This document shows, piece by piece, positions 1 through 16,478 of a stretch of DNA of 64,000 bases. The first letter of the stretch is position 1. Every line of letters starts with the position of its first letter. The stretch is from positions 3,284-67,283 of the forward strand of contig JANRKY010000286.1 in NCBI GenBank assembly GCA_033763135.1, read 5' to 3'. The DNA is from Blastocatellia bacterium (lineage in GTDB: Bacteria > Acidobacteriota > Blastocatellia > RBC074). The position numbers and the translations under genes are program-made. Under the pieces are notes generated by a model. It searched no databases. It had not been told where the DNA came from and saw only the letters and a program-made list of their open reading frames with translations.

Positions 1-2240
1 CCGATGGAGCCTGCGGCGTGGGATACCTGATGGGGGGGAACAATCCGGGCTTCGCCTCGTCCGGCTTCAACGTAGTGCGGCGGGATTGCGTCAGTCCGAA
101 TTACAGTTTCGGCCACGAGCTGGGGCACAACCAGGGATTGAATCACGCGCGGTCGGACGCGGTCGGGACCGGCGCGTTCAACTATTCCTTCGGGTTCAAG
201 GATTCGTCCAATCTCTTTCGGACGGTGATGGCGTACAACTGTCCGGTGAACTGTCCGCGGGTGCTCCATTTTTCGAACCCGGATGTCAACTACAACGGGC
301 GGCCGACGGGGATCGACGAGGCCGCGAGCAATTCGGCCAACAACGCGCTGAGTCTGAACGGCACGCGCGTGACGGTGGCCAATTTCCGCGCGGCGGTGAC
401 GACCTGCAACTATTCCATCGCGCCGGCGAGCGCGAACTTTCCGGCCGGCGGCGGAACGGGCAGCATCACGATGACGGTGGGGGCGGGCTGCGGGTGGTCC
501 GCGACGGCCAATCAGACGTGGATCACCGTCACCGGCGGCGGCAGCGGAAGCGGCAACGGCGTGGTGAACTATTCCGTCGCGGCCAATACGACGACGAGCA
601 TTCGCACGGGCTCGATCACGATTGCCGGGCAGAACTTCCCGATCGAGCAGGCCGCCGGCAGCGGCGCCTGTCCGCAGACGCCGCTCCTTCTCGGGCAGAC
701 GGCGTCGGGAAGCCTCGGCGCGGGAGATTGCGTTTTGAATGACGGGAGCTATGTCGATCTCTACAGCTTCAGCGGGACGACGGGGCAGCAGATTTCGATC
801 AGTCACTCATCGGCGCAGTTCGACGCGTATCTGCTGCTTGCCGGGCCGGACGGCAACGTGATCGCGCAGGACGATAACGGGGGCGGAGGCGCCAACGCAC
901 GCATTCCGGCGGGCAGCGGGTTGTATACGCTGCCGGCGACGGGAAGCTACACGATCTATGCGAACTCTCTGACGGCGGGCGAGACGGGCAGTTACTCGCT
1001 CGGCACGGCGGTCAGTCCGCCGACGCCGGCCGGGCTGCAGTTCTATCCGCTGGCGCGGCCGATTCGCCTGCTGGATACACGAGCATCGGCGAGTCCGAAC
1101 GCGTGCAACAAGCCGCTGGCGCAGATCCCGGGCGGGACCGCGCGGACGCAGCCTGCGCGCGGCCTGTGCGATGGATTGACGATCCCGGCGAACGCGGCGG
1201 CGATCACCGGCAACATCACGACCGTGCAGTCGGGCGGCGGCTTTCTGACGCTCTATCCGAGCGATGTTTCGCGGCCGACGGTTGCGAACTCGAACTACGG
1301 CGCAAATGAGATTCTGAACAATGTCTTCACCGTCGGGCTCGGGGCGAGTGACGGGGCGTTCAAGATTTATGTGACGACGAACACGGATGTCGTGGTGGAT
1401 GTGACGGGATATTACGCGCCGCCGGGAACAGGCGGGCTCTATTTTCATCCGCTGCCGAGGCCGGTGCGATTGCTCGAAACGCGCGCGGGCCTGTCGGGCT
1501 GTTATGCGCCGGGCAATCCGCTGCCGGGCGCGACGGAGACGACCCAGCAGGCGACAGGGGCCTGCGCGGGGCTCACGATTCCGTCCAATGCGCGCGCCAT
1601 CGTCGGCAATGCGACGACGGTCAGCCCGCAGGGAACGGGGGCGCAATTTTTCACGCTGTTCCCGGCGGACGCGGCGCGCCCGCTGGTGGCGAGTTCGAAC
1701 TATTCCGCGGGCCAGGTGATGAACGCTCCGTTTACCGTGGGCCTTTCGTCGACGGGCGCCTTCAAGATTCATCCGACGACGCAAACGCATCTCGTGATCG
1801 ACGTCACCGGGTACTACAGCCCGGACGCCACGGATGCCAACGGCGCCGGCCTGCGCTTCCATTCCCTGGCGGCGCCCATCCGCCTGCTCGAAACGCGCGC
1901 CGGTCTCAGCGGCTGTTATGCGCCGGGCGGCCAACTGCTCGCGGAAAGCGTGCGGACGCAGCCCGCGCGCGGCAATTGCGGCGGACTGACGGTGCCGGTC
2001 AACGCCGCGGCGCTGGTCGGCAACGCCACCGTCGTTCAGCCCCTCGCCGGCGGCTGGCTCACCTTCTGGCCGAGCGACGCAGCGACGCAGCCGACGGCGG
2101 CGGCGTCGAATTACGCCACCGGGCAGATCTTCAACCGCCACTTCATCGTGGGATTGGGGAGCGCTGATGGGGCGTTCAGGATCTACACAAAGGCGACGAC
2201 GCATCTGGTGATCGATCTGGCGGGCTATTTCGCGCCGTGA
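1..2240 (+). CDS. Secreted multidomain zinc metalloprotease, 5' end truncated by the window edge. Reprolysin-like HExxHxxGxxH catalytic domain, an Ig-like domain, a pre-peptidase C-terminal (PPC) domain and three tandem ~140 aa beta-rich repeats.
   Basis: ORF 18..2240, open to the window start. Motif GHELGHNQGLNHA. PPC-like segment DCVLNDGSYVDLYSFSG...FDAYLLLAGPDGNVIAQDDNGGGG. Three repeats each beginning RLLDTRA/RLLETRAGLSGCYAPG and ending VTGYYAP/AGYFAP. Confidence 0.7.
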   Translation, partial: DGACGVGYLMGGNNPGFASSGFNVVRRDCVSPNYSFGHELGHNQGLNHARSDAVGTGAFNYSFGFKDSSNLFRTVMAYNCPVNCPRVLHFSNPDVNYNGRPTGIDEAASNSANNALSLNGTRVTVANFRAAVTTCNYSIAPASANFPAGGGTGSITMTVGAGCGWSATANQTWITVTGGGSGSGNGVVNYSVAANTTTSIRTGSITIAGQNFPIEQAAGSGACPQTPLLLGQTASGSLGAGDCVLNDGSYVDLYSFSGTTGQQISISHSSAQFDAYLLLAGPDGNVIAQDDNGGGGANARIPAGSGLYTLPATGSYTIYANSLTAGETGSYSLGTAVSPPTPAGLQFYPLARPIRLLDTRASASPNACNKPLAQIPGGTARTQPARGLCDGLTIPANAAAITGNITTVQSGGGFLTLYPSDVSRPTVANSNYGANEILNNVFTVGLGASDGAFKIYVTTNTDVVVDVTGYYAPPGTGGLYFHPLPRPVRLLETRAGLSGCYAPGNPLPGATETTQQATGACAGLTIPSNARAIVGNATTVSPQGTGAQFFTLFPADAARPLVASSNYSAGQVMNAPFTVGLSSTGAFKIHPTTQTHLVIDVTGYYSPDATDANGAGLRFHSLAAPIRLLETRAGLSGCYAPGGQLLAESVRTQPARGNCGGLTVPVNAAALVGNATVVQPLAGGWLTFWPSDAATQPTAAASNYATGQIFNRHFIVGLGSADGAFRIYTKATTHLVIDLAGYFAP

Positions 2241-2306: not shown

Positions 2307-3989
2307 TTGTCGCGGAAGCGGAATCAATTGTGGGAGGGCGTGGCGGTTGTGCTTCTGGCCCTGTCTCCGAGTTATCTCTGGCTGGCGTTGGATCGAGACG
2401 CCTTTGGCGGGGACCAGTCGGAGTATGGGACGACGTCCATTACTCTCTATCGGACTCTGACGCAATACCCGCGACAATGGCCGGCGGCCATGTTGCAGGC
2501 GCTGCCTTCGCGTGGGCCGGCGTTGGGATGGATCGGGCAGTTCTTCGTTCCCCTGGGAGAGCGGATCGGGTCGATCGACGTGGCCCTGTTATTGATGATC
2601 TGCCTGAGCCAGACGCTGAGCGTCTGGCTGATGTACCTGGCGATGCTGGCGCTGAGCGGCGGGCGGCGGGGAATCGCCGGGCTGGTTGCGGTTGCGATCA
2701 GCTCGGCGCCGTTGTTTGTCGGGCTTACCCACATGCTTTTCATCGAGCCGCTCCAACTGCTGGCGACAGCTCTCTGTATTTATCTGCTCAGTCGATGTCA
2801 GACGCGGGAGCCCGCGATCGTCCTGGGGCAGTTGCTCCTCCTGGGATCGGTCGCCGCGCTGGTCAAGGCGACGACGCTGCTCTTTATCTGCGCTTATGTG
2901 TCGGCGATTCTGGGGGAATCGCTGAGGCGGGGGCTGCGAGATCGTTCGTGGGGATGGCGGAGCGGGCGCGCCATGGTCGCGTGGGGAATTGGGATCGCGG
3001 CGGCGGCGCTCGCGGTTCTTTGGTACGGAGTGCATCTTCCCGTAGTGATTGCTCATACACGGTCCTCGGCCCTTGGGCCGACCGCCGCGGTATGGGGGAA
3101 GGAAGACACGTTTTTTCATACCCTGCAGTATTGGGGGCGCGAACTTTTCGAGAGCTTTTTTTACCTGCCGATCCTGGCGATCTTTCTTTCGCTGGTGGTT
3201 GTGGGCGTCGTTCTTTGGCGGCGGGGAATTGGAGAGGCTGACGGAAATCCGCGGCGATCCGATTTTCGCGGGGCCGCGCTCGTGTCCGCGGTTCAAATCG
3301 CGCTCACGCTCACGGTCTTCTCCTTTGGGTCGAACAGGATCGACCGGTTCCTGTTGCCTCTCTGGCCCTGCGTTGCGCTGCTGATTGGATGGGGTGTCGA
3401 CGAGATCCGGCAGCCGGGCGTGAAGAAGATGATCCAGGCCGCGTTTCTCGCGCAATTGCTGATCGTCCACGGCGCGATGTTCAAGCTCGTACCGGTCAAG
3501 TTTGCGCCTTCCTATTACGTGTTGCCGTTGCAGCGGGACTTGAAGAAGAAGCGCATCCTGGAAGAGGTGATCAATCGCACATGCGTGGAGCGGAGACATG
3601 AGCGATATCGTGTCGTGGTTGCAATTGATCCGACCATGTGGGGGGACTGGTTTGCGCCCGTGCCGGCGGGCTATGCGGCGGCAAAGCGATATGGCCTGGA
3701 GGCTCCGTGCGGCTTTGATTACGCCGGCGGCGGCTTTTTCGGGGCGAGCCTCGCGGAGACCTGGAGGCTTCTGGCGACGACGCCGCCGCAATATCTGCTC
3801 ATCAATGATCCGTCGAGATATCCCTTGTCTCCCAATGTACTGAACCGATCGCTGACCCCGGACAATCATGCCCGGTTGTTGGAGCTTCTACGAACAGACG
3901 GGTTGTTTGAAGAGCAGCCTCCATTGGGCGTCGATCCCGGGATCCTGGTATTTAAACGCAGGAGTCCGGGCCGGTCCGAGGCGCATTGA
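2307..3989 (+). CDS. Polytopic membrane glycosyltransferase of the GT-C fold (ArnT/PMT/GT39-like). The start codon is uncertain: TTG at 2307 or a downstream GTG.
   Basis: 560 aa ORF with more than 10 predicted hydrophobic helices. The N-terminal loop DRDAFGGDQSEY resembles the GT39/83 acidic loop. No ATG occurs before codon ~97. Confidence 0.5.
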   Translation: MSRKRNQLWEGVAVVLLALSPSYLWLALDRDAFGGDQSEYGTTSITLYRTLTQYPRQWPAAMLQALPSRGPALGWIGQFFVPLGERIGSIDVALLLMICLSQTLSVWLMYLAMLALSGGRRGIAGLVAVAISSAPLFVGLTHMLFIEPLQLLATALCIYLLSRCQTREPAIVLGQLLLLGSVAALVKATTLLFICAYVSAILGESLRRGLRDRSWGWRSGRAMVAWGIGIAAAALAVLWYGVHLPVVIAHTRSSALGPTAAVWGKEDTFFHTLQYWGRELFESFFYLPILAIFLSLVVVGVVLWRRGIGEADGNPRRSDFRGAALVSAVQIALTLTVFSFGSNRIDRFLLPLWPCVALLIGWGVDEIRQPGVKKMIQAAFLAQLLIVHGAMFKLVPVKFAPSYYVLPLQRDLKKKRILEEVINRTCVERRHERYRVVVAIDPTMWGDWFAPVPAGYAAAKRYGLEAPCGFDYAGGGFFGASLAETWRLLATTPPQYLLINDPSRYPLSPNVLNRSLTPDNHARLLELLRTDGLFEEQPPLGVDPGILVFKRRSPGRSEAH

Positions 3990-4019: not shown

Positions 4020-7000
4020 TCAATCGATCATCGCCTCGGCCTGGAGCATCAGCGTGCGATCGATCAGCTCGGCGAGCATGACGTCTGTCAGGCTGCCCCG
4101 CTGGAGCTTGCGATTGAGCAGATGATCCTCGGTCGACGGCAGGTCTTCGTTATAGGTGCGGCGCTTCTCGTAGGAGGCGGTCGGCCCCAGTTTTCGCAGG
4201 ACGGGCTGATAGCTGTCGAAGGCGGCCTGGCTCGTCTCGACGAGACAGCGGGTCTGTTTCTTCTCGGCGATGAAGATATGCAGGCCGCGCTCGAGTTCGA
4301 GCTTCAGAAAGGCCTGCGGGAACTGGATGCCGAGCAGGATGGCGGCGACGCCGTCGATGGGCGCGGCGAAGAACTTCGCCGGCGTCTCGACCGGGATTCG
4401 CTGCAGGGCGGCGACGGTCGGCTCCTTCTTTTTCGAGGGGCGCGCCGCTTTGTGAATGAAATAGCAGAGCGAGATCTTTCGATCATGCAGCTTCGCGTAG
4501 GAATGATAGAGCTCCGCCAGTTCGAAGAGCCGCCGGGGCGATTCGCCATAGATCGCCAGCGTGACGACGTCCGGATTCTTGATGCGAAGCGCGTAGAGAT
4601 CGGTCAGGATGCGGTTCCAGCGGTTGGAGAGGGCATCGACGCGAACGCCGGCCTGCGTGAGATCGATTGTCTTCTTGCCGTAGAACTGGAGGAGCAGGTC
4701 GGCTTCGACCTGATTGATGTCGGCGCAGAAGTCGGCGATCGTCTGGCGCAGTTTTTTCAGCTGCGGGAGGGCTTCCAGACCGGCGAGGTCCTGGGGATTC
4801 TTCCATTTGCTTGTCTGGACGCGTTTTTCCAGGCGTTCGAGCGAGAAGATCTCGTTCTGCAGATTTCGCAGCGCGGCGCTGCGTTCGAGTTTTTGGGCGC
4901 GTCGACGGTAGAGCTGGCAGGACAGGGCGAGCAGCTTCGGCCGGTTGTTCTGCTGTTGGGTCTGGGCGGCGGCGCTCTCGGCGACTTTGCGGGTGTGCCA
5001 GGAGAGATGATCGGCCTCGACGCGAATGGCGATCTCGGCGACCTCGTTCGATTCGACCTGACAGAGTTCGACGGAGAGCGGCGCGACAAGTTCGCGTTCG
5101 ATGGCGCGTTTGAGCGGCCGGGCGCCGTATCGGGGATCGTAGCCGCGGCGTGCGAGATGGCGCGTGACCTCGTCGTCGATCTTGAGAACGACGTCGCGGA
5201 ACCGGAGCCCGTCGCGATGGCGGATCTTTTCGATCTCGCGTTCGGCGATTCGCAGGACCGTCGCTTCGTCGAGCGGGGCGAAGGGAACGATGCGGTCGAT
5301 GCGATTGAACATCTCGGGGCGCATCGCCTGGCGCACGGCGTTGGTGAAGTGTCGCGCGGCGGCCTCGCGCGTGGCATTGGCTTCGCCGAATCCCACGAGG
5401 CCGCGCTGGAACGACTGCGCGCCCAGATTCGACGTCATGATCACGACGGAGTTGGAGAAATCGGCGACGCGTCCCATGGCGTCGGTCAATCGGCCCTCGC
5501 CGAGCACCTGCAGCAGCAGATCGAAGAAGGAGGGATCGGCCTTTTCCAGTTCATCGAGCAGCACGACGGAGAAGGGTTGTTCCCGGACCTGCGCCGTCAG
5601 CAGGCCTTCTTTCCCGAAGACGCCGCCGACGAGGCGTGTGACGGCGAGCGGGTCGGCGTATTCACTCATATCGAACCGGACCATGCGGCCGCGATCCTGA
5701 AACAGAAATTCGGCCAGCGCCTTGGCCATCTCGGTCTTGCCGACGCCCGTCGGGCCGATGAAGAGCAGTGACGCGATCGGTTTTCGCGGTCGCGTCAGGC
5801 CGGCCTTGACGGTCGCCAGCAGATCGACGATCAGATGCACGGCGTCCGGCTGTCCCACGACCCGCGAGGCGAACCACTCCCGCACCGATTCCGGCTCCAT
5901 CCGCTCGTCTTCGCTGAGCAGCAGACGGGGCAGGCCCGTCTCTTTCGAGAAGGCGCGAATGACGTCCTCGGACTGCAGCTCCCGCTCGGTCTCGTGATCC
6001 TGCAGCAGGTTTCGAAGAAAGCGCACGGGGCGCCCCGGGCTGGCCGAATAGCCCGCGTATCGCTGATGGAGCTGATCGATGCGTTCGAGCGCCTCCAGAT
6101 GAATGCGGTCGTTCCCCTTCTCGACGGTGTCGGCGAGAGCGTAGCCGAGCAGGACGCCGCGCCGTCGCTCGGCGGTCGGCTCTTCGACCTTGATCTGCTG
6201 AAAGATGTCGAGCATCTTGCGATTGGCGCGATCGACGTGGGCGGCCTGTTCCGGCGTGCACTCCGCGATCACGAGCGCGTCGCCGCGCGCGATGAAGGGG
6301 CGCAGAAAGTCGGCGATGCCCTGTTCATTCCCGACATATTTTCCGACCTCCATCAGCTCGACGAGATTGCCGAAATAGAGGATCGCCCGCTGTTGCGCGG
6401 CCTCCTGCCAGAGCTGCCGGCATCGCTCCTGCCATTGTCCGAAGCCCGACATGCCCGCGACGAGGCGGGAGCCGTTCGTCGCATAAAAGGGCGTATGGGC
6501 GAACTGAAAATCGGCGCGGCGGCGGATCAGTTCGAAGACCGCCGCCGTCTTTCCGACGCCCGACGGGCCGACCAGCAGGACGCTGCGCGGAGACTTGCCC
6601 GAGAGGGCTTCCGCCATCTGCGCGACGACGGCCTCCATTTCATAGGCGACCGGCAGCGGGCGCGTCGTCAGATCGGTTGCGGCCTCGGCGAGGGCGGATC
6701 GCTTCTTCTCCTCGAACACGTTCTGTCGCGAGGCGATCTGTCGCGGCGTGAGCGCGTCGAGCTCGACCGTGTCCGCGGCGATGCGCAGGTCGATCTCCCG
6801 CTGCAGCCAGACAAGCCGGGCGAGCGATTCGCCGGCGCCCCGGCGCGCAAGCTCCGCGCGAATGTGGGGCGCGATGATCCGGTCGAGCGCCTCCATCGTC
6901 GCCGCTTTGGTCGAGACGATCTCGATGCCGAGCGTCGGCAGAAAGGCGATCGCGGCCGCGTCTCCATGCATCCACCGCACCCCGCGAAAACGAAGCTGCA

Positions 7001-7259
7001 CCGGCGTCCGCCAGAGCGGCGACTTTGCCGGGGGCGCGGCGACGAGCTCGTATTCGAATCGCTCGACCTCTCCAGCATGTCGTCGATGATGCGCATAGAG
7101 CGGCGGCGTGTCGGCCAGCAGCCGCTTTACGTTTTGCTTCAAACTCCCGATCACGCGCGAAGCCCTGCTTTCGACCCGAACCAGTTCGGGAAACAGCAGC
7201 GCCTGCGCCAGCAGGGTCTCGTTCTCAAGCTCGGTTATCAGGGTGATGATCGGCAGCAT
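4020..7259 (-). CDS. Atypical ClpA/ClpB-family double AAA+ ATPase. Unique ~200 aa N-domain, a D1 domain with a degenerate Walker B, an intact D2 domain, and an unassigned ~350 aa C-terminal extension.
   Basis: D1 Walker A is LLVGPSGVGKT. D1 Walker B reads ILYFGNLVELMEVG, where the ClpB consensus is ILFIDELHTMVGAG. D2 is FIGPTGVGKTEMAKALAEFLF, VRFDMSEY, VVLLDELEKA and GARPLKRAIERELVAPLS. The ORF runs to 7337 into the repeat island; the start is assumed to be the ATG at 7259. Confidence 0.75.
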   Translation of the reverse strand: MLPIITLITELENETLLAQALLFPELVRVESRASRVIGSLKQNVKRLLADTPPLYAHHRRHAGEVERFEYELVAAPPAKSPLWRTPVQLRFRGVRWMHGDAAAIAFLPTLGIEIVSTKAATMEALDRIIAPHIRAELARRGAGESLARLVWLQREIDLRIAADTVELDALTPRQIASRQNVFEEKKRSALAEAATDLTTRPLPVAYEMEAVVAQMAEALSGKSPRSVLLVGPSGVGKTAAVFELIRRRADFQFAHTPFYATNGSRLVAGMSGFGQWQERCRQLWQEAAQQRAILYFGNLVELMEVGKYVGNEQGIADFLRPFIARGDALVIAECTPEQAAHVDRANRKMLDIFQQIKVEEPTAERRRGVLLGYALADTVEKGNDRIHLEALERIDQLHQRYAGYSASPGRPVRFLRNLLQDHETERELQSEDVIRAFSKETGLPRLLLSEDERMEPESVREWFASRVVGQPDAVHLIVDLLATVKAGLTRPRKPIASLLFIGPTGVGKTEMAKALAEFLFQDRGRMVRFDMSEYADPLAVTRLVGGVFGKEGLLTAQVREQPFSVVLLDELEKADPSFFDLLLQVLGEGRLTDAMGRVADFSNSVVIMTSNLGAQSFQRGLVGFGEANATREAAARHFTNAVRQAMRPEMFNRIDRIVPFAPLDEATVLRIAEREIEKIRHRDGLRFRDVVLKIDDEVTRHLARRGYDPRYGARPLKRAIERELVAPLSVELCQVESNEVAEIAIRVEADHLSWHTRKVAESAAAQTQQQNNRPKLLALSCQLYRRRAQKLERSAALRNLQNEIFSLERLEKRVQTSKWKNPQDLAGLEALPQLKKLRQTIADFCADINQVEADLLLQFYGKKTIDLTQAGVRVDALSNRWNRILTDLYALRIKNPDVVTLAIYGESPRRLFELAELYHSYAKLHDRKISLCYFIHKAARPSKKKEPTVAALQRIPVETPAKFFAAPIDGVAAILLGIQFPQAFLKLELERGLHIFIAEKKQTRCLVETSQAAFDSYQPVLRKLGPTASYEKRRTYNEDLPSTEDHLLNRKLQRGSLTDVMLAELIDRTLMLQAEAMID

Positions 7260-7602
7260 CTGTAATTGAGAATTGACAATGGAGAATTGATAATTGGCAG
7301 CCGTCCGCCGCGGCGCCCGCCAACTATCAACCATCAATTGTCAAATTTCAATTCTCAACTATCAATTCTCGTCTCTTGCCGCATTTCTTCTCGCGGGTTA
7401 CATTGCCTTTCGCACGAGCAATACATCCCTTTACGAATCAGGCCGGCGGGAACTGGGAATTGAGAATTGAGAATTGAGGATTGAGAATTGATCGTCCGTC
7501 GACATCGATGTCGACGGCCAGGGCTCCACGATCAATCGTCAATTCTCAATTCTCAATTCTCAATTCTCAATTCTCAATTCCCCGGGCGTTTTCGAGGCAT
7601 TC
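7260..7602. repeat. AT-rich island of nested inverted repeats built from AATTGAGA/TCTCAATT octamers. It lies in the divergent promoter region between the AAA+ ATPase gene and the SDR gene.
   Basis: IR-A has imperfect arms at 7263-7297 and 7321-7370. IR-B has 37 nt arms at 7456-7492 and 7538-7574 with 2 mismatches. They flank a perfect 22 bp palindrome CCGTCGACATCGATGTCGACGG at 7496-7517. Confidence 0.85.
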
Positions 7603-9040: not shown

Positions 9041-9095
9041 TCCATCGTGGCCGAATCGATGATCAAAGCCAAATAACTCGCGGGGCGCAACACAC

Positions 9096-10643
9096 ATGAA
9101 CGGAGCGGAAAGTCTCTTCAAGACGCTGCTGGATGCCGGGTTGAATGTCTGTTTCGCGAACCCGGGAACGACGGAGATGCCGATGGTGCGCGCGCTCGAT
9201 GAGGTTGCGGGGATGCGCACCGTGCTCTGTCTGTTCGAGGGGGTGGCGACGGGCGCGGCGGACGGATACGCCCGGATGAGCGGGCGTCCGGGATTGACGC
9301 TGCTCCATCTGGGGCCGGGCTTCGCAAACGGGATCGCCTATCTGCACGATGCCAGACGCGCGCGGTCCCCGATCGTCAATCTGATCGGGGACCACGCGAC
9401 GTGGCATCTGGCGGCGGACGCTCCGCTGACGAGCGACATCGAGTCGCTGGCGCGTCCGGTCTCGACCTGGGTTCGGCGGAGCGAATCGGCGGACGCGATT
9501 CCGCGCGATGCGGCGGAGGCGATCGCTTCCGCGTGGGCGCGGCCGGGACAGATCTCCACGCTGATTCTGCCGCACGACCATCAGATGGCGGAGGCATCGG
9601 GGCCCGCCGCGGTCGCGCCGATTCCGGGGCCGCCTCCGGTCGGCGAAACGCCGCTGCGAGAGGCGCTGGCGGCGCTTCGGGAAGAGCCGCCGGCGGCGCT
9701 CTTTCTGGGCGGATACGCGCTGCGCGAACGCGGATTGAAGGCCGTCGCGCGAATTGCGGCGGCCGCCAACTGTCGGCTGCTCTGCGAGACCTTTCCGGCG
9801 CGATGGGAGCGCGGGGCGGGGACGCCGATCCTCGAACGGCTGCCCTATTTTCCCGAGCCCGGAATCGCGATGCTCTCGCAATTCAAAACCATCATTCTGG
9901 CCGGCGCGCGGTCGCCGGTCACGTTCTTCGGATATCCCGGCCTGCCCAGCTATTTCATTTCGCCCGAACAGCGGACGCTGACGCTGGCCACGCCGGAGGA
10001 GGATGTCGAGACGGCGCTCGAATCGCTCGCGGATGCGCTGGGAGCGCCCGCCAGCGTTGCCGTGAACACGGCCCGCGCCGTTCCGCCGCGCCCGGCGGGA
10101 GCGATCACCGCCGAGAGTCTCTCCGCGATCGTCGCCGCGCTGCTTCCCGAAGGCGCCATCGTCATGGACGAGAGCAACACGAGCATGGGGCCGTTTTCGG
10201 TGATGGCGCAATCGGCCAGCCCGCATACCGTGCTGACGCAGCCCGGCGGCGCCATCGGTCTCGGGCCGCCCTGCGCGACGGGCGCGGCCATCGCCTGTCC
10301 GGATCGCGTCGTTCTCAATCTGCAGGCCGACGGCAGCGCGATGTACACGATTCAGGCCCTCTGGACCCAGGCCCGCGAATCGCTCAACGTCAAGACGATC
10401 ATCTGCAACAATCGCAGCTATCGCATTCTCGGCATCGAACTGATGCGCGCCGGAATCACCCGGATCGGCGAGCAGGCCCGGCGGCTGGTCGGCCTCGACA
10501 ATCCCGCCATCGACTGGGTGCAGCTCTCGCAGGGGCTCGGCGTCCCCGCGACCCGCGTCGAGACCGCGGAGCAGCTCGCCCTCGCTCTCGAACGCGCCCT
10601 GGCCGAACCGGGGCCCGCGCTCATCGAAGCGCTGGTGAGCTGA
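9096..10643 (+). CDS. Thiamine-pyrophosphate-dependent enzyme (acetolactate synthase large-subunit / benzoylformate decarboxylase family).
   Basis: 515 aa. N-terminal TPP-pyrimidine-binding pattern [12 protein letters not shown]. Central and C-terminal TPP-binding regions. Confidence 0.8.
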
Positions 10644-10679
10644 GACGACGATCGCACTTAATGAAAAAGGAGTCATACA

Positions 10680-11882
10680 ATGAACTTCGAATATACCGAC
10701 AAGGTCAAATACCTGCAGAAGAAGCTGTCGTCCTTCATGGACGAATACATCTACCCCAATGAAGCCGCGTATTACGAGCAGCTCAACACGGGCGAGCGCT
10801 GGAAGGTTCTGCCCGTCATCGAGGAGTTGAAGCCGAAGGCGAAGGCCGAGGGGTTGTGGAATCTTTTTCTTCCCGAAAGCGAGCACGGGGCGGGGCTGAC
10901 GAATCTGGAATATGCGCCGCTGTGCGAAATCATGGGGCGGGTTCCGTGGTCGGCCGAAGTCTTCAACTGTTCGGCGCCCGACACCGGAAACATGGAGGTG
11001 CTCGTTCGCTACGGCAGCGAAGAGAACAAGGCGCAGTGGCTGACGCCGCTGCTCAACGGCGAGATCCGCTCCTGTTACGCGATGACGGAGCCTGAGGTGG
11101 CCTCGTCGGACGCGACGAACATCTGTTCGAGCATCGTTCGCGACGGCGACTCGTACGTCATCAACGGCCGCAAGTGGTGGACGTCCGGCGCCGGCGATCC
11201 GCGATGCCGCATCGCGATCTTCATGGGAAAGACCGATGTCACCGCGCCGACCCACAAGCAGCAGTCGATGATCCTCGTGCCGATGGACGCGCCGGGCGTG
11301 AAGGTCATGCGCATGCTCAATGTTTTCGGCTATGACGATGCGCCGCACGGCCACGCGGAGGTCCTCTTCGAGAACGTCCGCGTCCCGGCCGGAAACATTC
11401 TTCTCGGAGAGGGGCGCGGTTTCGAGATCGCCCAGGGGCGGCTCGGTCCCGGCCGCATCCACCACTGCATGCGCACGATCGGACTCGCTGAACGCTCGCT
11501 CGAAGCGATGTGCAAACGTGTCAAGCATCGCGTCGCGTTCGGAAAGACGATCGCCGAGCAGGGGACCATCCGCGCGGACATCGCCGCCTGCCGCATCGAG
11601 ATCGAACAGGCGCGCCTGCTGACCCTCAAGGCCGCCTATATGATGGACACCGTCGGCAACAAGGTCGCCCGCGCCGAGATCGCCATGATCAAGGTCGTCG
11701 CTCCCAACATGGCGCTTCGCGTCATCGATCGCGCGCTTCAGGCGCACGGCGGCGGCGGCGTCAGCCAGGACTTCCATCTGGCCAGCGCCTGGTCGCATGC
11801 CCGCACCCTGCGCCTCGCCGACGGACCGGACGAGGTCCATCGCGAGACCATCGCCAAACTCGAATTGAAGAAGTACGAGTAG
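10680..11882 (+). CDS. Acyl-CoA dehydrogenase (ACAD10/11-like, FadE family).
   Basis: 400 aa. [13 protein letters not shown] and the C-terminal catalytic region are typical of the ACAD fold. AAGGAG RBS. Confidence 0.85.
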
Positions 11883-11981: not shown

Positions 11982-14900
11982 TCAATGGACCGCGCAGCGT
12001 TCGATGGCGGCCTGCAGCTCTTCGAGGCGGACGGGTTTGCTGACGAAATCGTCCATGCCGGCCGAGAGGCAGAGATCGCGGTCCTCCTGCAGCACGTTGG
12101 CGGTCATGGCGATGATGCGGGGGCGGTCCAGCGGCCATTCGGCGCAGATGCGGCGAGTGGCCTCGATGCCGTCCATCTCGGGCATGTGAACGTCCATGAA
12201 GATCACGTCATACCGCTGTCTGCGAATGGCGTCGATGGCTTCGATGCCGTTGCCTGCGATGTCGGCACGATAGCCGAGTCGGTCGAGCAGCCGCAGGGCG
12301 ACCTTTTGATTGATCACGTTGTCTTCGGTCAGCAGGACGCGGAGCGGCAATCGGCGGGCGGTCTCTGTCGAGAGCTTTGGCGGCGCGACGGAGTTTCGCG
12401 GCGAGGCCTTCCGCCGGCTGACGATGCCGATGAGCGCATCGTAGAGCTGAGAGGGCTTGATCGGTTTGTTGAGAAAGGCGGCGAAGTCGAGCCCTTCGTA
12501 TTTCTCCTTCAATTCGCGGGCGCTTGTGGCGAGCGAGGTCAGCATGACCATTTGCGGTTGAACGATGCCCGGCAGGCGGCGGATTTCGAGCGAGAGCATG
12601 GCGCCGTCCATGGCCGGCATCTGCATATCCAGAATCGCGAGATCGAACGCTTCGCCGCCGCGCAGCAGAGCGAGCGCCTCGGCGCCGCCGGCGACCGCCT
12701 GCGGCCGCATCCCCCAGGAACTCGTCTGTCGCAGCAGGATGCGGCGATTCGTTTCGTTGTCGTCGACGATGAGCACGCGTTTGCCGTCCAGATCGGGTTG
12801 TTCTCCCAGTTGATAGCTGCGCGGCGCGGTCGCGGCGGCCGCGGCCCGGATCGTGAACGTGAACGTGGAGCCCTCGCCTTCCCGGCTTTCGACGCGGACC
12901 GTCCCGCCCATCATTTCGCTGAGGAGCTTCGTGATCGCGAGCCCCAGCCCGGTTCCGCCGTACTGGCGGGTCGTCGACGAGTCGACCTGGCTGAACGACT
13001 TGAACAGGCGATCCATTCGATCCCTGGGAATGCCGATGCCCGTATCCCGCACGGCGAATTCCAGTTCGTGGAGGCCCGCTTCCAGCGGGCGCGAGGAGAC
13101 GGCGATCACGACTTCGCCCGCGAGAGTGAACTTGACCGCGTTGCTGAGCAGATTGACGAGGATCTGTCGCAGACGGGTGATGTCGCCGATGATGTCGCGC
13201 GGCGTCGTCTCGTCGATCATATAGGCGAGTTCGATCCCCTTTTCGCCGGCTCTCGATGAGAGCAGATCGAGCGACTCCTCGATGCAGCCGGCGAGGCTGA
13301 ATGGCTGCTGCTCCAGTTCGAGCATGCCGCTTTCGATCTTCGAGAAATCGAGAATGTCGTTGATGATCGTCAGCAGGGAATCGCCGCTGGTCCGAACGAT
13401 CTCGACGAACTCCCGCTGCTCTTCGTCCAGATCGGTATCGAGCAGCAGCCCCGTCATTCCGATGACGGCGTTCATCGGCGTTCGAATCTCGTGGCTCATA
13501 TTGGCCAGAAATTCGCTTTTGGCGCGATTGGCAGCTTCGGCGCCGTCCTTGGCGAGCTGCAGTTCCGTCTCGGCCCGCTTGCGTTGAATGAAGCGCGTGA
13601 TCCGGTTGGCGATTCCCTGGAGCGCATCCATCGTGGTTTGGGGGAGCGGCCGGCGCGAGAAGAGCGCGACGCCGCCGAAGAGCCGGTCCTCCGCGATCAG
13701 CGGATAGCCGGCAAAGGCGACCATTCCCTCGCGCCTCGCCCATTCGGGGTCTCCGATGTTCGGCGCGGTGAGAATCGAGTTCGTCAACAGGGGCTTGCGG
13801 GAGGCGGCGATTCCGCCGATCAGCAGCTTGCCGACGGGGATTCGCGCGTGCGGCCCGTCGATCTCGGTAAAGATGCCCGCGCTTGCTTCGAGCTGGAGCA
13901 TGTCCTCCGCTTCGTCATAGGACCAGATGCGGCAGAAAGCGGCGTCCAGGTGCCGCACCGTCAGCTCCGCGCAGCGTTGCAGCGTGTCGCGAAGAGCGCC
14001 GGGCCGGTTGAGCGCGTTGCCGATATCGGAATTGAGCGCGAGCAGATTGGCCCGCTCCTGCTGCTCGGCCTCGATCCGCGTGCGCTCGGCAATCTCCAGG
14101 CGCAGTTCGCGGGTTCGTTCCTCGACGACCGCCAGCAGCGCCCGCTCGCGCTCTCGGAGCTGCCGCACCCGAAACCGATACCCGCCCGCCGCGGCCAGCA
14201 GGACGCCCAGCAGACACATGCCGTAAAACCACCAGGTCTGCCGGAAGCGCGGACGAAGCTTGAACGAGACGCTCGCTCCCTGCTCGTTCCACACGCCATC
14301 GTTGTTGCAGGCCATGACCTGAAAGCGGTATTCCCCCGGCGGGATGTGGGTGTAATAGGCGACGCGGCGTCCCCCGGCATCGATCCAGTTCTCGTCGTAT
14401 CCTTCCAGCCGATAACGAAATCGCACCTTCTCGGGAACGAGCAGCGACAGGCCGTTGTAGCGAATCTCGAACGAATCGCCGCCGGGAGGAAGCTGGAGCG
14501 AATTGTCCGGCGGAAGCGCGCTCCCATTGACGACCAGCTCTTCGATCACGACCGGCAGCATGAGGTCGTTCTGTTTGAATCGCGCGGGATCGACGATGGC
14601 CACCCCTTTTTTCGTCAGAAACCAGAGCCTGCCGTCCCGCGCGCGCCACCCCGAATGACTGGTTCCGAAGACGCATTCGTCCGTCTTCATGCCATCGCCG
14701 GTTCCGAAGACCGTGGGCTGCAGCCGCGGCGCGCGCCCGGCGTCGAAGGCGGCCAGCTCCTGCGCGCGAATGCGCGCCAGTCCCCGGGGCGAACTCACCC
14801 AGAGATCTCCGCTCGCATCGTGGAGAACGCAGAGCGCCTGATTGTCCATCAGCCCCTGCGCCTCGGTGTAGCTCGTGAACTCGCCTTCGCGCCAGCGATT

Positions 14901-16478
14901 GAGGCCGCCCCGCATCGTGCTCATCCAGATCGCGCCGTCCGCGCTCTCGTCGAAGGAGGTGATCCAGTTGTCCGAGAGCCCGTCCGCTTTGGTATAGAGC
15001 TTCGCCTCCCCGTCGCGAATGCGAACCACGCCGCCCGTCGTTCCCGCCCAGAGCGTTCCCCGCGAATCCCGAAAGAGCGCGCTGTGGTATTCGGTATTGT
15101 CATAGGGCTTTCCGTCGCGAAGCAGCACGGGGCGTATCTCGCCCCGCACAAAGCGCCGCAAGCCGACCTTGTCGATGAAGAAGAGAATGCTCTCGTCGTC
15201 CTCCGCGACGCAGGAGATCCATTGATCATGAAACTGAGGGAGATACTCCGTGACCCTGCCGTCGCGGATCTGCCGCAGACCGCGGGTGCCCGCGACCCAG
15301 ACGCTGCCGTCGCGGGAGGCAAAGGACGGGCCGCCTCTGCCTGCGATGTTGGTGAGCGATCCCTTGTGGAGCCGGGTGAATTGCGCCGAACTGTCATTGA
15401 AGATGTAGATGCTGCCGTCGCCCGCCTCAACGACGCTGTTGACCGAATCGTGGGCCAGCCCCTCGCGGGTCGTCAGCGGGAGAATTCGCACGTCTCGCAG
15501 CCGGTTGAGTCCTTCCCGGGTGGCGATCCAGAGGCTTCCCTCGCGGTCTTCGCTCAATCCCTGCACGTAGTTATTGCTGAGGCCATTCAGAATATCGAGG
15601 TGCGTCCACCTGCCGTTCGCCAGCCGGTTCAAGCCTCCATTGGAGGTTCCGACCCAGAGATTGCCCTCCCGGTCCTCGTGAATGGCGGTGATGACGGCAT
15701 CGCTCAATCCCTCGGGCACGCCGATGGTGGTCAATTTCCCGTTTCGCCATCGGCATAATCCGACCAGTGTGCCGAACCAGAGATCTCCCCGCCGGTCGAC
15801 GGCGACGGCGTGAACGCGCGTCGAGGGCATTCCCTGCGCGGCCGTCAGGCGTTCGGTGCGCCCATTGGAAAAGATCTCGACGCCGGCGTGATGGCCGACA
15901 TAGATGGCGCCCGCTGCGTCTTCCGCGATCCCGCAGATATAGTTGTGCGCGACCGGATGGCGAAGAAATTTTCTGTCTCTGTATTCGAAAAGGCCATTTG
16001 CGGTCCCAATCCAGAGAGCGCCGCTCCGGCTTTGAAAGAGCACGCGGATCTGATCGTCGATGCCGTCCTGCTTTCCGAAATGAACAATCCGTCCATCCTG
16101 GATTCGGCGAAGCCCGTTGGTCTCGGTGCCCACCCAGAGGGCGCCATCGGCGCTCTCCAGCAGAACGGCGACCGACTCCTTGCCATGTTTCTCGTCCGCG
16201 CTGATCTTGACAAGGCGGAAGTTGGCGCCGTCGAAGCGGATCAGCCCCGCCGTCGTCGCGAGCAGCAGATAGCCCTGTTTCGTCGCATGCACCGAATTGA
16301 CCGCGCTCGCAGGCAGGCCGTTCTGTCGCAGCCAGACATCGTGGCTGTACTGGGTGAGCGCGATTTCCGGATCGAGCGCGAACGCGACGGAGCCGCACAG
16401 GACGCCGAGCAGGATCAATGACAACAACCGTCGCGCGGTGTCCCGGAACACACTCCTCTGGTACCTCATAGCTGGCAT
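11982..16478 (-). CDS. Hybrid sensor histidine kinase. Signal peptide, periplasmic two-component-regulator propeller/Y_Y_Y repeats, a transmembrane helix, GAF, HisKA and HATPase domains, and two receiver domains.
   Basis: 1498 aa. Phospho-acceptor block [21 protein letters not shown]. Two C-terminal REC domains ([13 protein letters not shown]... and [14 protein letters not shown]...). Confidence 0.85.

Follow-up and report, generated by a model that had tools for sequence, protein, structure and literature searches.

The gene and its product

The minus strand of a 64,000-nucleotide stretch of a Blastocatellia bacterium genome (contig JANRKY010000286.1 of assembly GCA_033763135.1; this whole stretch is called the window) carries an open reading frame (ORF) at positions 4020-7259. 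It begins with an ATG at 7259, ends with a stop codon at 4020-4022, is uninterrupted, and encodes a product of 1079 amino acids (aa), a double AAA+ ATPase of the Clp/Hsp100 type that we call paralog A. The protein consists of an apparently HicB-like N-terminal domain, a first ring (D1) that is a pseudo-ATPase, an intact second ring (D2) that follows without a middle domain (M-domain), and a C-terminal tail homologous to class I release factors (RFs) but lacking their GGQ domain. We have high confidence in this architecture, and the gene very probably belongs, as member "A", to a hitherto undescribed clade of AAA+ proteins with the double ring of Clp/Hsp100. The features of the gene are as follows.

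4020-7259, minus strand: complete coding sequence of paralog A, established by the ORF, its translation, an identical deposited protein, and orthologues
6750-7259, minus strand: N-terminal domain (aa 1-170), apparently two tandem HicB-like beta-beta-beta-alpha-beta units, then a linker helix (aa 172-193)
6000-6662, minus strand: D1 AAA+ module (aa ~200-420), degenerate, with the Pfam AAA match at aa 227-351
6546-6569, minus strand: D1 Walker A, GPSGVGKT (aa 231-238), conserved
6366-6383, minus strand: degenerate D1 Walker B, ILYFGN (aa 293-298), with Gly-Asn for Asp-Glu, aligned to ILFIDE of E. coli ClpA/ClpB
6201-6209, minus strand: lost D1 arginine fingers, DIF (aa 351-353) where ClpA/ClpB have RRF in the alignments
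5025-5882, minus strand: D2 AAA+ module and D2-small (aa 460-745), catalytic motifs all intact, recognized by Pfam and by a 230-bit match to ClpC D2
5613-5636, minus strand: D2 pore-1 loop region, RLVGGVFG (aa 542-549), 5 residues shorter than GAPPGYVGY of ClpA/ClpB
5388-5396, minus strand: V-G-F tripeptide (aa 622-624), in register with the ClpP-docking IGL loop of ClpA
4023-4577, minus strand: RF-like superdomain 2/4 (aa ~895-1079), the codon-recognition-domain fold, keeping RF1 motifs
4188-4214, minus strand: nine-residue linker (aa 1016-1024) at the site of the ~94-residue GGQ domain of RF1, placed by the hhalign register

A protein deposited as "AAA family ATPase [Blastocatellia bacterium]" (P0001), from a metagenome-assembled genome (MAG) of Blastocatellia (Acidobacteriota), has the same sequence as the window protein. 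The latter was aligned directly with E. coli ClpA and ClpB and, besides, with 118 full-length orthologues of 42-78% identity; all residue counts given as n/118 refer to this orthologue alignment. Pfam recognizes AAA at aa 227-351, AAA_2 at aa 493-656 (1e-42), and ClpB_D2-small at aa 663-743 (6e-17), and has no match for aa 1-200 or aa 750-1079. In a sequence search of the PDB, D2 matched ClpC and ClpB strongly (230 bits), the match of D1 was weak (35 bits), and coverage ended at aa ~750. Together with NCBIfam, these matches bear out the original prediction, made from the sequence alone, of a double AAA+ protein of the Clp family. The motifs quoted there are all present, namely GPSGVGKT at aa 231, LVAGMSGFGQWQERC at aa 266-280, ILYFGNLVELMEVG at aa 293-306, GPTGVGKT at aa 502, VVLLDELEKA at aa 565, and GARPLKR at aa 712. 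The C-terminal extension that it described is real, but spans ~330 aa (about 750-1079) rather than ~350, and the protein has 1079 aa rather than ~1090.

The protein is also, as predicted, no housekeeping ClpB. The ClpB equivalog of NCBIfam (TIGR03346), which has a cut-off of 1232.1 bits, reaches 345.8 bits over two stretches, the best of them covering aa 425-753, and the ClpA equivalog scores 318 bits against 993. ClpG, ClpK, and ClpV score lower still. The best names for the protein are ClpB (top), ClpA, ClpG, and ClpK, with all scores 3-7-fold under their cut-offs. In public annotation, members of the family are called "AAA family ATPase" or ClpA/ClpC.

The C-terminal release factor-like module

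An AlphaFold2 model of aa 745-1079, built with 31 diverse family sequences, has a mean predicted local distance difference test score (pLDDT) of 87.7 and a predicted template modeling score (pTM) of 0.79. It folds as a helical bundle followed by an alpha/beta domain. When the model was compared with the PDB by Foldseek, hits 1-43 were all RF1, RF2, mtRF1, or mtRF1a, with E-values down to 1e-7 and a probability of 1.00. Hit 44, the weakest match to the RF family, was PrfH. The domain arrangement of the model is nearest to compact RF forms, with a TMq of 0.50 for free RF2 (2ihr) and of 0.43-0.45 for pre-accommodated RF2. A sequence profile of the tail gave weak matches in the PDB, of which 13 of 20 were RF1/RF2, aligned colinearly. 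Alignment of the tail by hhalign with the RF1 proteins of E. coli and one planctomycete gave E-values of 1.4e-5 over RF1 residues 18-186 and 1.1e-4 over residues 299-354.

Two RF1 motifs are kept in superdomain 2/4. The family-invariant E990-x-G992-x-H994 corresponds to E178-S-G-G-H182 (ESGGH) of RF1, and R1033-R1034-T-Y-N...E-D1045-H corresponds to the N-R308-T-Y-N...T-D-H stretch of RF1 (NRTYNFPQGRVTDH), with R-x-Y...D-H invariant in the family. The GGQ peptidyl-hydrolase domain (RF1 residues 205-298) has no counterpart in the tail by hhalign. The spacing from E.G.H to RRxY has a median of 40 residues in the family, versus 124 in E. coli RF1, and no conserved GGQ is found in the orthologues, 8 of the 118 having chance occurrences. 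The tail is RF domain 1 plus superdomain 2/4 with the GGQ domain precisely missing, and is non-catalytic. According to Burroughs and Aravind, the GGQ domain of RFs is an insert within the codon-recognition domain (PMC6514570). The tail is probably also codon-blind, because neither the PxT/SPF loop (VPATE of RF1 aligns to a variable AEKKQ) nor the codon readers Q185 and H197 are conserved in its sequence.

The earlier statement that the extension has no recognizable motif is superseded by the AlphaFold2, Foldseek, and hhalign results. No motif was seen because sequence-family libraries alone miss the tail, with a single marginal match to PCRF. Compared with RF1 and RF2, which consist of PCRF and RF-1 domains, the tail keeps E-x-G-x-H, R-x-Y-N...D-H, and the fold of domain 1 and superdomain 2/4. 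It differs from them in lacking the GGQ domain 3 and conserved codon readers, and in being fused to an AAA+ motor instead of free-standing. PrfH, in contrast, keeps GGQ, lacks domain 1, and has no ATPase fusion.

The degenerate D1 ring

D1 of the window protein is just 21-22% identical to the D1 modules of ClpA and ClpB, whereas these two share 54%. Its Walker A motif, GxSGxGK[TS], is kept throughout the family: G231, G234, G236, and K237 are found in 118/118, and position 238 is T in 113 and S in 5. At the Walker B site, ClpA and ClpB have IDE where A has FGN; G297 is present in 118/118 and N298 in 111/118. Because of these counts, the Gly-Asn pair is an ancestral trait of the family and no strain-specific lesion. 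The retention of Walker A and the exchange of Asp-Glu for Gly-Asn, both read earlier from the one sequence, are therefore family-wide. No intact Asp-Glu Walker B occurs in the orthologues, and no known ClpB/ClpC accessory domain in the extension. The arginine fingers are lost as well, position 351 of the family being D, E, or Q and position 352 A or V, followed by F. The pore loop of D1, AGMSG[F/Y]GxWQER, is essentially invariant and aromatic. As judged from its motifs, D1 probably binds nucleotide and does not hydrolyze it.

Two glutamates near the degenerate nucleotide site are invariant. E301 lies in GNLxE (window 6357-6359), and E333 lies in the sensor-1 strand AE[CA]TPE (6261-6263). This sensor-1 motif, AE.TPE, is also kept in two paralogs, B and C, described below.

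The D2 ring, the ClpP-type loop, and the N-terminal domain

D2 is intact, in agreement with the original prediction. Its Walker A, D569-E570, sensor-1 N611, arginine finger R653, and sensor-2 GARPLKR are each present in 117-118/118, and D2 is ~46% identical to that of E. coli ClpB. However, the canonical G-Y-V-G of the pore-1 loop is not found. A five-residue deletion (GGVFG-----KEG) lies at this place, and the loop is aromatic in just 74/118 orthologues.

Nine residues past the TSN sensor-1 motif, D2 carries a [LIV]-G-[FL] tripeptide, V622-G623-F624. Tripeptides of this type are the ClpP-docking element of ClpA, ClpC, and ClpX. G623 is present in 118/118, and position 624 is F in 103 and L in 12 (F/L in 115/118). 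The VGF aligns with IGL of ClpA and with AGF of S. aureus ClpC, and has no counterpart in ClpB. No clpP gene is conserved beside gene A in the neighborhoods of ~80 loci. The alignment with ClpA and ClpB also confirms that the coiled-coil M-domain, ~120 aa long in E. coli ClpB, is absent, as the original prediction had stated. A short D1-D2 linker takes its place, which aligns with that of ClpA, and the same holds against ClpC.

The lack of a Clp_N domain was foreseen and is borne out, Pfam finding nothing for aa 1-200. The folds closest to the N-domain are HicB and a "putative RNA-binding protein", and the domain apparently consists of tandem HicB-like units (UPF0150; a partial RNase H-like fold) in place of Clp_N.

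In sum of parts, A resembles ClpA and ClpC in having two AAA+ modules per chain, no long M-domain (as in ClpA), intact D2 motifs, a D2-small domain, and the [LIV]-G-[FL] loop in register with IGL of ClpA and xGF of ClpC. It is unlike them in the apparently HicB-like domain that replaces Clp_N, in a D1 without the acidic Walker B pair and the arginine fingers, in a D2 GYVG loop five residues short, and in the 330-aa RF-like module at the C-terminus. With ClpB and Hsp104, A shares the D2 identity and the top NCBIfam name, but it lacks M-domain and Clp_N, its D1 is inactive by motifs, and it has a ClpP-type loop that ClpB lacks. The label "ClpB-like" that had been given to it is a poor one for this reason: the M-domain is absent and a conserved [LIV]-G-F loop stands where ClpA has IGL, ClpC has xGF, and ClpB has none.

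Distribution of the family and the A-B-C operon

A profile search with the tail, run on 1.84 billion proteins, matched 810 cluster representatives at E <= 1e-3. In the top 150 of these 810, the full-length ones all have 1043-1162 aa with the module at the C-terminus, and the shorter entries look like gene fragments. The RF-like module is thus a dedicated fusion, C-terminal in all full-length matches. Two peptide patterns specific to D1, GM[ST]G[FY]G[MQ]W and A[TG]YSA[YS]PGRP (both present in the window protein), were searched for in one genome of each GTDB species, and 231 loci were confirmed. The family spans at least 231 species of Acidobacteriota and the Planctomycetes-Verrucomicrobia-Chlamydiae (PVC) group. 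Taxonomy was listed for the best 80 of the 231 loci, and these 80 are all MAGs. Their hosts are Acidobacteriota (Blastocatellia, Pyrinomonadaceae), Planctomycetota (Gemmataceae, Pirellulales, Phycisphaerae), Verrucomicrobiota, Lentisphaerae, and Kiritimatiellae. Nine carriers are MAGs titled "uncultured Clostridia", "Heliobacteriaceae", or "Alcaligenaceae" (L011, L015, L025, L027, L039, L048, L050, L073, and L078). These titles are probably mislabelings by automated taxonomy, because the proteins sit among Acidobacteriota and Planctomycetota orthologues.

The original prediction proposed that the neighborhoods of orthologues be checked for conserved partners, and the check yielded two, both of them paralogous Clp-like genes. 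Among 47 loci whose sequence continues for 7 kb or more past A, paralog B (~1100 aa) lies downstream of A on the same strand in 36, often with a 4-bp overlap, and paralog C (~760 aa) follows B in 30. Examples of the A-B-C operon, with an A of ~1100 aa and frequent 4-bp overlaps of stop and start codons, are L001 (13350-18912), L011, L013, L030, and L033-L038. The three paralogs have in common a canonical D2, the xGF loop, the AE.TPE strand, and a homologous N-domain. The D1 pore-loop Tyr is canonical in B and C. At the D1 Walker B position, B has FDD and C is degenerate. C has no C-terminal tail. The tail of B matches that of A weakly (E 3.8e-5), matches RF1 (E 1.3e-3), and carries the motif E-x-G-T-H-L; it appears weakly RF-like, with less support than the tail of A.

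The A-B-C operon suggests a hetero-oligomeric machine. Type II AAA+ proteins such as Pex1/Pex6 and NSF are similar in that nucleotide binding by one ring serves assembly and hydrolysis is left to the other, and the co-operonic paralogs suggest hetero-hexamers. However, those proteins belong to the classical AAA clade rather than to Clp/Hsp100, and a hetero-oligomer of A, B, and C would be a candidate.

Paralog A stands alone in 11 of the 47 loci and also in the window, where no further Clp-like sequence, and so no B or C, is found within the 64 kb. One genome of the "A alone" kind (L089 1-9351; GCA_019695185.1, JAIBAN010000008.1) has C and B ~90 kb away on the same contig, with an S8 peptidase gene and a PemK toxin-antitoxin pair inserted between the two. 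The A-B-C set can therefore persist unlinked. A search for paralog B on one 105,480-bp contig gave no match. Apart from B and C, clustering of the neighbors of ~80 loci yielded no conserved gene, and an SDR gene found in 15 loci represents lineage-specific synteny. The adjacent GT-C/PMT_2 glycosyltransferase, which had been named as a possible conserved partner, is not one according to this clustering.

A possible role at the ribosome

The reading that we favor, at a probability of roughly 0.4, is that A is a ClpA/ClpC-like unfoldase tethered to the ribosomal A site by its non-catalytic RF module. D1 would bind ATP and serve the assembly of the hexamer, and D2 would be the motor. The RF-derived tail would act as a catalytically dead, codon-independent ligand of the A site and the decoding center, with RF domain 1 at the factor-binding site of the ribosome. 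In this way the tail would keep the unfoldase ring attached to ribosomes that have an unoccupied A site because they are stalled, vacant, or hibernating. There, the ring could extract or unfold a ribosome-bound protein and possibly hand it over to ClpP via the VGF loops, while the N-domain would select the client.

Several lines of homology and analogy point in this direction. To our knowledge, all characterized relatives of the fold of the tail act on the ribosome, at the A site, which argues for an A-site ligand. In genuine RFs, domain 1 faces the ribosomal factor-binding site. In A, the tail is likewise attached to the motor, at D2-small, by RF-like domain 1, which suggests a tether at the A site and the factor site. 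Balon, which belongs to the release factor family but lacks catalytic or codon-reading motifs, is a precedent, since it sits in the A site whatever the mRNA (PMC10901736). Furthermore, Dom34 functions in ribosome quality control, as does the eRF1-like Vms1 together with the AAA+ protein Cdc48 (PMC6514570), and this pairing is a precedent for an A-site factor working with an AAA+ motor.

These precedents are similar in concept and differ in detail. In Vms1/ANKZF1 with Cdc48/p97, a ribosome ligand of the release factor family is combined with a double-ring AAA+ unfoldase driven mainly by one of its rings (PMC6514570). However, Vms1 has an aeRF1-type fold unrelated to bacterial RFs, pairs with Cdc48 non-covalently via a VIM motif, and is catalytically active, whereas the module of A cannot hydrolyze peptidyl-tRNA; the function is demonstrated for Vms1-Cdc48 and proposed for A. 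Balon and Dom34/Pelota, like the tail, have lost catalytic or codon-reading motifs and retained an A site-shaped fold, but they belong to the aeRF1 superfamily and have no ATPase fusion.

A number of observations weigh against a ribosome-tethered unfoldase. The tether itself is argued from homology and analogy. The RF1 residues that read stop codons (Q185, P188-x-T190, and H197) are not conserved, and the RF motifs that are retained may be residues of the fold core rather than rRNA contacts. The Pfam thresholds for PCRF and RF-1 are not passed: a search to E 10 found neither in the window protein, and found PCRF in one of 31 family tails at E 0.016. In net charge, the RF-like 2/4 domain is close to neutral, a value from which rRNA binding cannot be judged. 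The neighborhoods of ~80 loci have no ribosomal genes and none for rescue or hibernation. The RF module projects from the D2 side of the ring, to which ClpP would dock, and not from the side where substrates enter; because of this, simultaneous docking to the A site and to ClpP is not obviously possible. The shortened pore-1 loop of D2, in the sole active ring, weakens the case for a canonical processive threading motor. Finally, the loss of hydrolysis in D1 is read from motifs, and the invariant E301 or E333 could stand in for the Walker B glutamate.

Several of these observations are what would be expected if the RF-like tail had been exapted for a purpose unrelated to the ribosome, and we regard this as quite possible. 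The tail would then be a regulatory, oligomerization, or adaptor-binding domain, and the protein would be a ClpP-coupled or stand-alone unfoldase of soluble clients. The helical domain 1 might, for instance, have an M-domain-like role, or the beta-sheet of 2/4 might bind a peptide partner as RF2 binds ArfA. The loss of both the codon-reading residues and the GGQ domain fits exaptation, as do conserved tail residues that could be structural core, the position of the tail on the ClpP-proximal side of the ring, neighborhoods without translation-related genes, the conservation of the VGF loop in A, B, and C, and a model nearest to compact free or pre-accommodated RFs (TMq 0.50 for 2ihr; 0.43-0.45). 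However, RF domain 1 and superdomain 2/4 have been kept together over ~320 residues in two phylum-level groups, and possibly in paralog B. This is not expected of exaptation, because a generic interaction domain would not preserve both. The ribosomal role of all characterized relatives of the fold also speaks for the A-site tether.

It is improbable, by comparison, that A is an obligate subunit of a hetero-hexamer with B and C, in the manner of Pex1/Pex6 or of the Rpt ring of the proteasome, and that the window copy is a decaying orphan or depends on B and C elsewhere in its genome. The operons (30-36 of 47 loci), with their often overlapping stop and start codons, fit this idea. So do the complementary features of D1, where B has FDD and the canonical pore-loop Tyr and C the canonical Tyr, and the genome in which B and C lie ~90 kb from an apparently solitary A. 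However, the window ORF is intact and has every family-invariant residue, which makes decay unlikely, and neither the 11 loci with A alone nor the window, with no B or C in 64 kb, agree with an obligate complex. Hetero-oligomerization as such is compatible with a ribosome-tethered unfoldase and not opposed to it. That A is a plain stress disaggregase like ClpB, ClpG, or ClpK, or else takes part in anti-phage defense, is very improbable: the best NCBIfam names and PADLOC matches to DolB and PDC-M37B (~1e-28) speak for these two readings, but the former lie 3-7-fold under the family cut-offs in a protein with no M-domain, no Clp_N or ClpG-type N-domains, and a degenerate D1, while the latter span just the generic D2 ATPase core (aa 457-619), for which a defense system was rejected, and no defense genes are conserved nearby.

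Relation to known ribosome rescue and to release factor evolution

Known bacterial ribosome rescue and quality control depend on free factors (tmRNA-SmpB, ArfA/ArfB, and RqcH), and ClpXP acts later, on released tagged proteins. We know of no bacterial AAA+ unfoldase that carries its own ribosome-ligand domain. In the literature searched, no fusion of a Clp or AAA+ protein to a bacterial RF module, no three-paralog Clp-like A-B-C operon, and no RF codon-recognition domain lacking the GGQ insert were found. The Clp-RF fusion is apparently an undescribed architecture, and the family is one of Hsp100 unfoldases with a new targeting module and a degenerate ring. The survey of RFs by Burroughs and Aravind tracks the GGQ domain (PMC6514570), and would have missed the tail of A for that reason.

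If the ribosome-tethered unfoldase is real, the permanent fusion of a Clp motor with a catalytically dead release factor would couple the state of the ribosome to protein unfolding or degradation in a new way. It would give a handle on the management of stalled or dormant ribosomes in slow-growing soil and aquatic phyla. A wider and rather doubtful extension is that Acidobacteriota and the PVC group have a ribosome-associated machine for protein extraction of a kind not described from bacteria so far. It would link ATP-driven extraction, and possibly degradation by ClpP, to the recognition of ribosomes that are stalled or idle. By analogy, such a machine might be a one-polypeptide functional counterpart of the eukaryotic Vms1-Cdc48, a parallel that we consider just as doubtful. 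Less likely than this extraction machine, the RF module, which has no insert, may show the bacterial codon-recognition domain as it was before it acquired the GGQ domain. The family would also offer a handle on what RF domains 1 and 2/4 can do without the GGQ domain, and on the working of a double-ring Hsp100 whose D1 ring is dead and whose D2 pore loop is truncated. Even without ribosome binding, the tail appears to be the first bacterial RF codon-recognition fold lacking the GGQ insert, which bears on the assembly of release factors.

Neighboring genes and the upstream repeat island

In the window, gene A lies between a convergent PMT_2 glycosyltransferase gene and a divergent SDR gene. Other features of this part of the window are as follows.

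7263-7361, minus strand: leader hairpin of GAGAATT-type heptamers with a ~50-bp stem, ending 4 nt upstream of the ATG of gene A
2307-3989, plus strand: PMT_2 (GT-C-type) glycosyltransferase, a marginal Pfam match (25.6 bits against a cut-off of 26.1)
18-2240, plus strand: ORF with BACON and PPC domains and a weak reprolysin-like match
9063-11840, minus strand: ORF of 925 aa with no Pfam match at E <= 1e-3
11982-16478, minus strand: hybrid sensor histidine kinase of 1498 aa with a Reg_prop beta-propeller, Y_Y_Y, GAF, HisKA, HATPase_c, and two Response_reg stretches

The intergenic region upstream of gene A (7260-7602) contains two long hairpins (7263-7361 and 7448-7582), the arms of which consist of tandem GAGAATT-type heptamers. 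Within the 64 kb, these heptamers occur only in this region (16 matches versus 0.3 expected). The leader hairpin, folded as RNA, has an energy of -56.8 kcal/mol (z -5.5). The hairpin and the same start context are kept upstream of the 78%-identical orthologue in locus L007, and the hairpin is absent upstream of 55%-identical orthologues.

The island had been proposed to drive gene A. In a promoter scan, the sigma-70-like matches in the island all lie inside the heptamer repeats, which themselves generate them, and no promoter is assigned. A role of the leader hairpin in translation is as possible as a promoter role of the island, and the hairpins may act as a leader in translation or represent a small repeat or mobile element.

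The proteins of the window (7245-7259) and of L007 (9338) both start with MLPI..., 3-4 residues shorter than the other orthologues, which start with MPKH[DE]LPII.... Because of this shorter start, the repeat hairpin may have displaced the original 5' end of the gene in these two loci.

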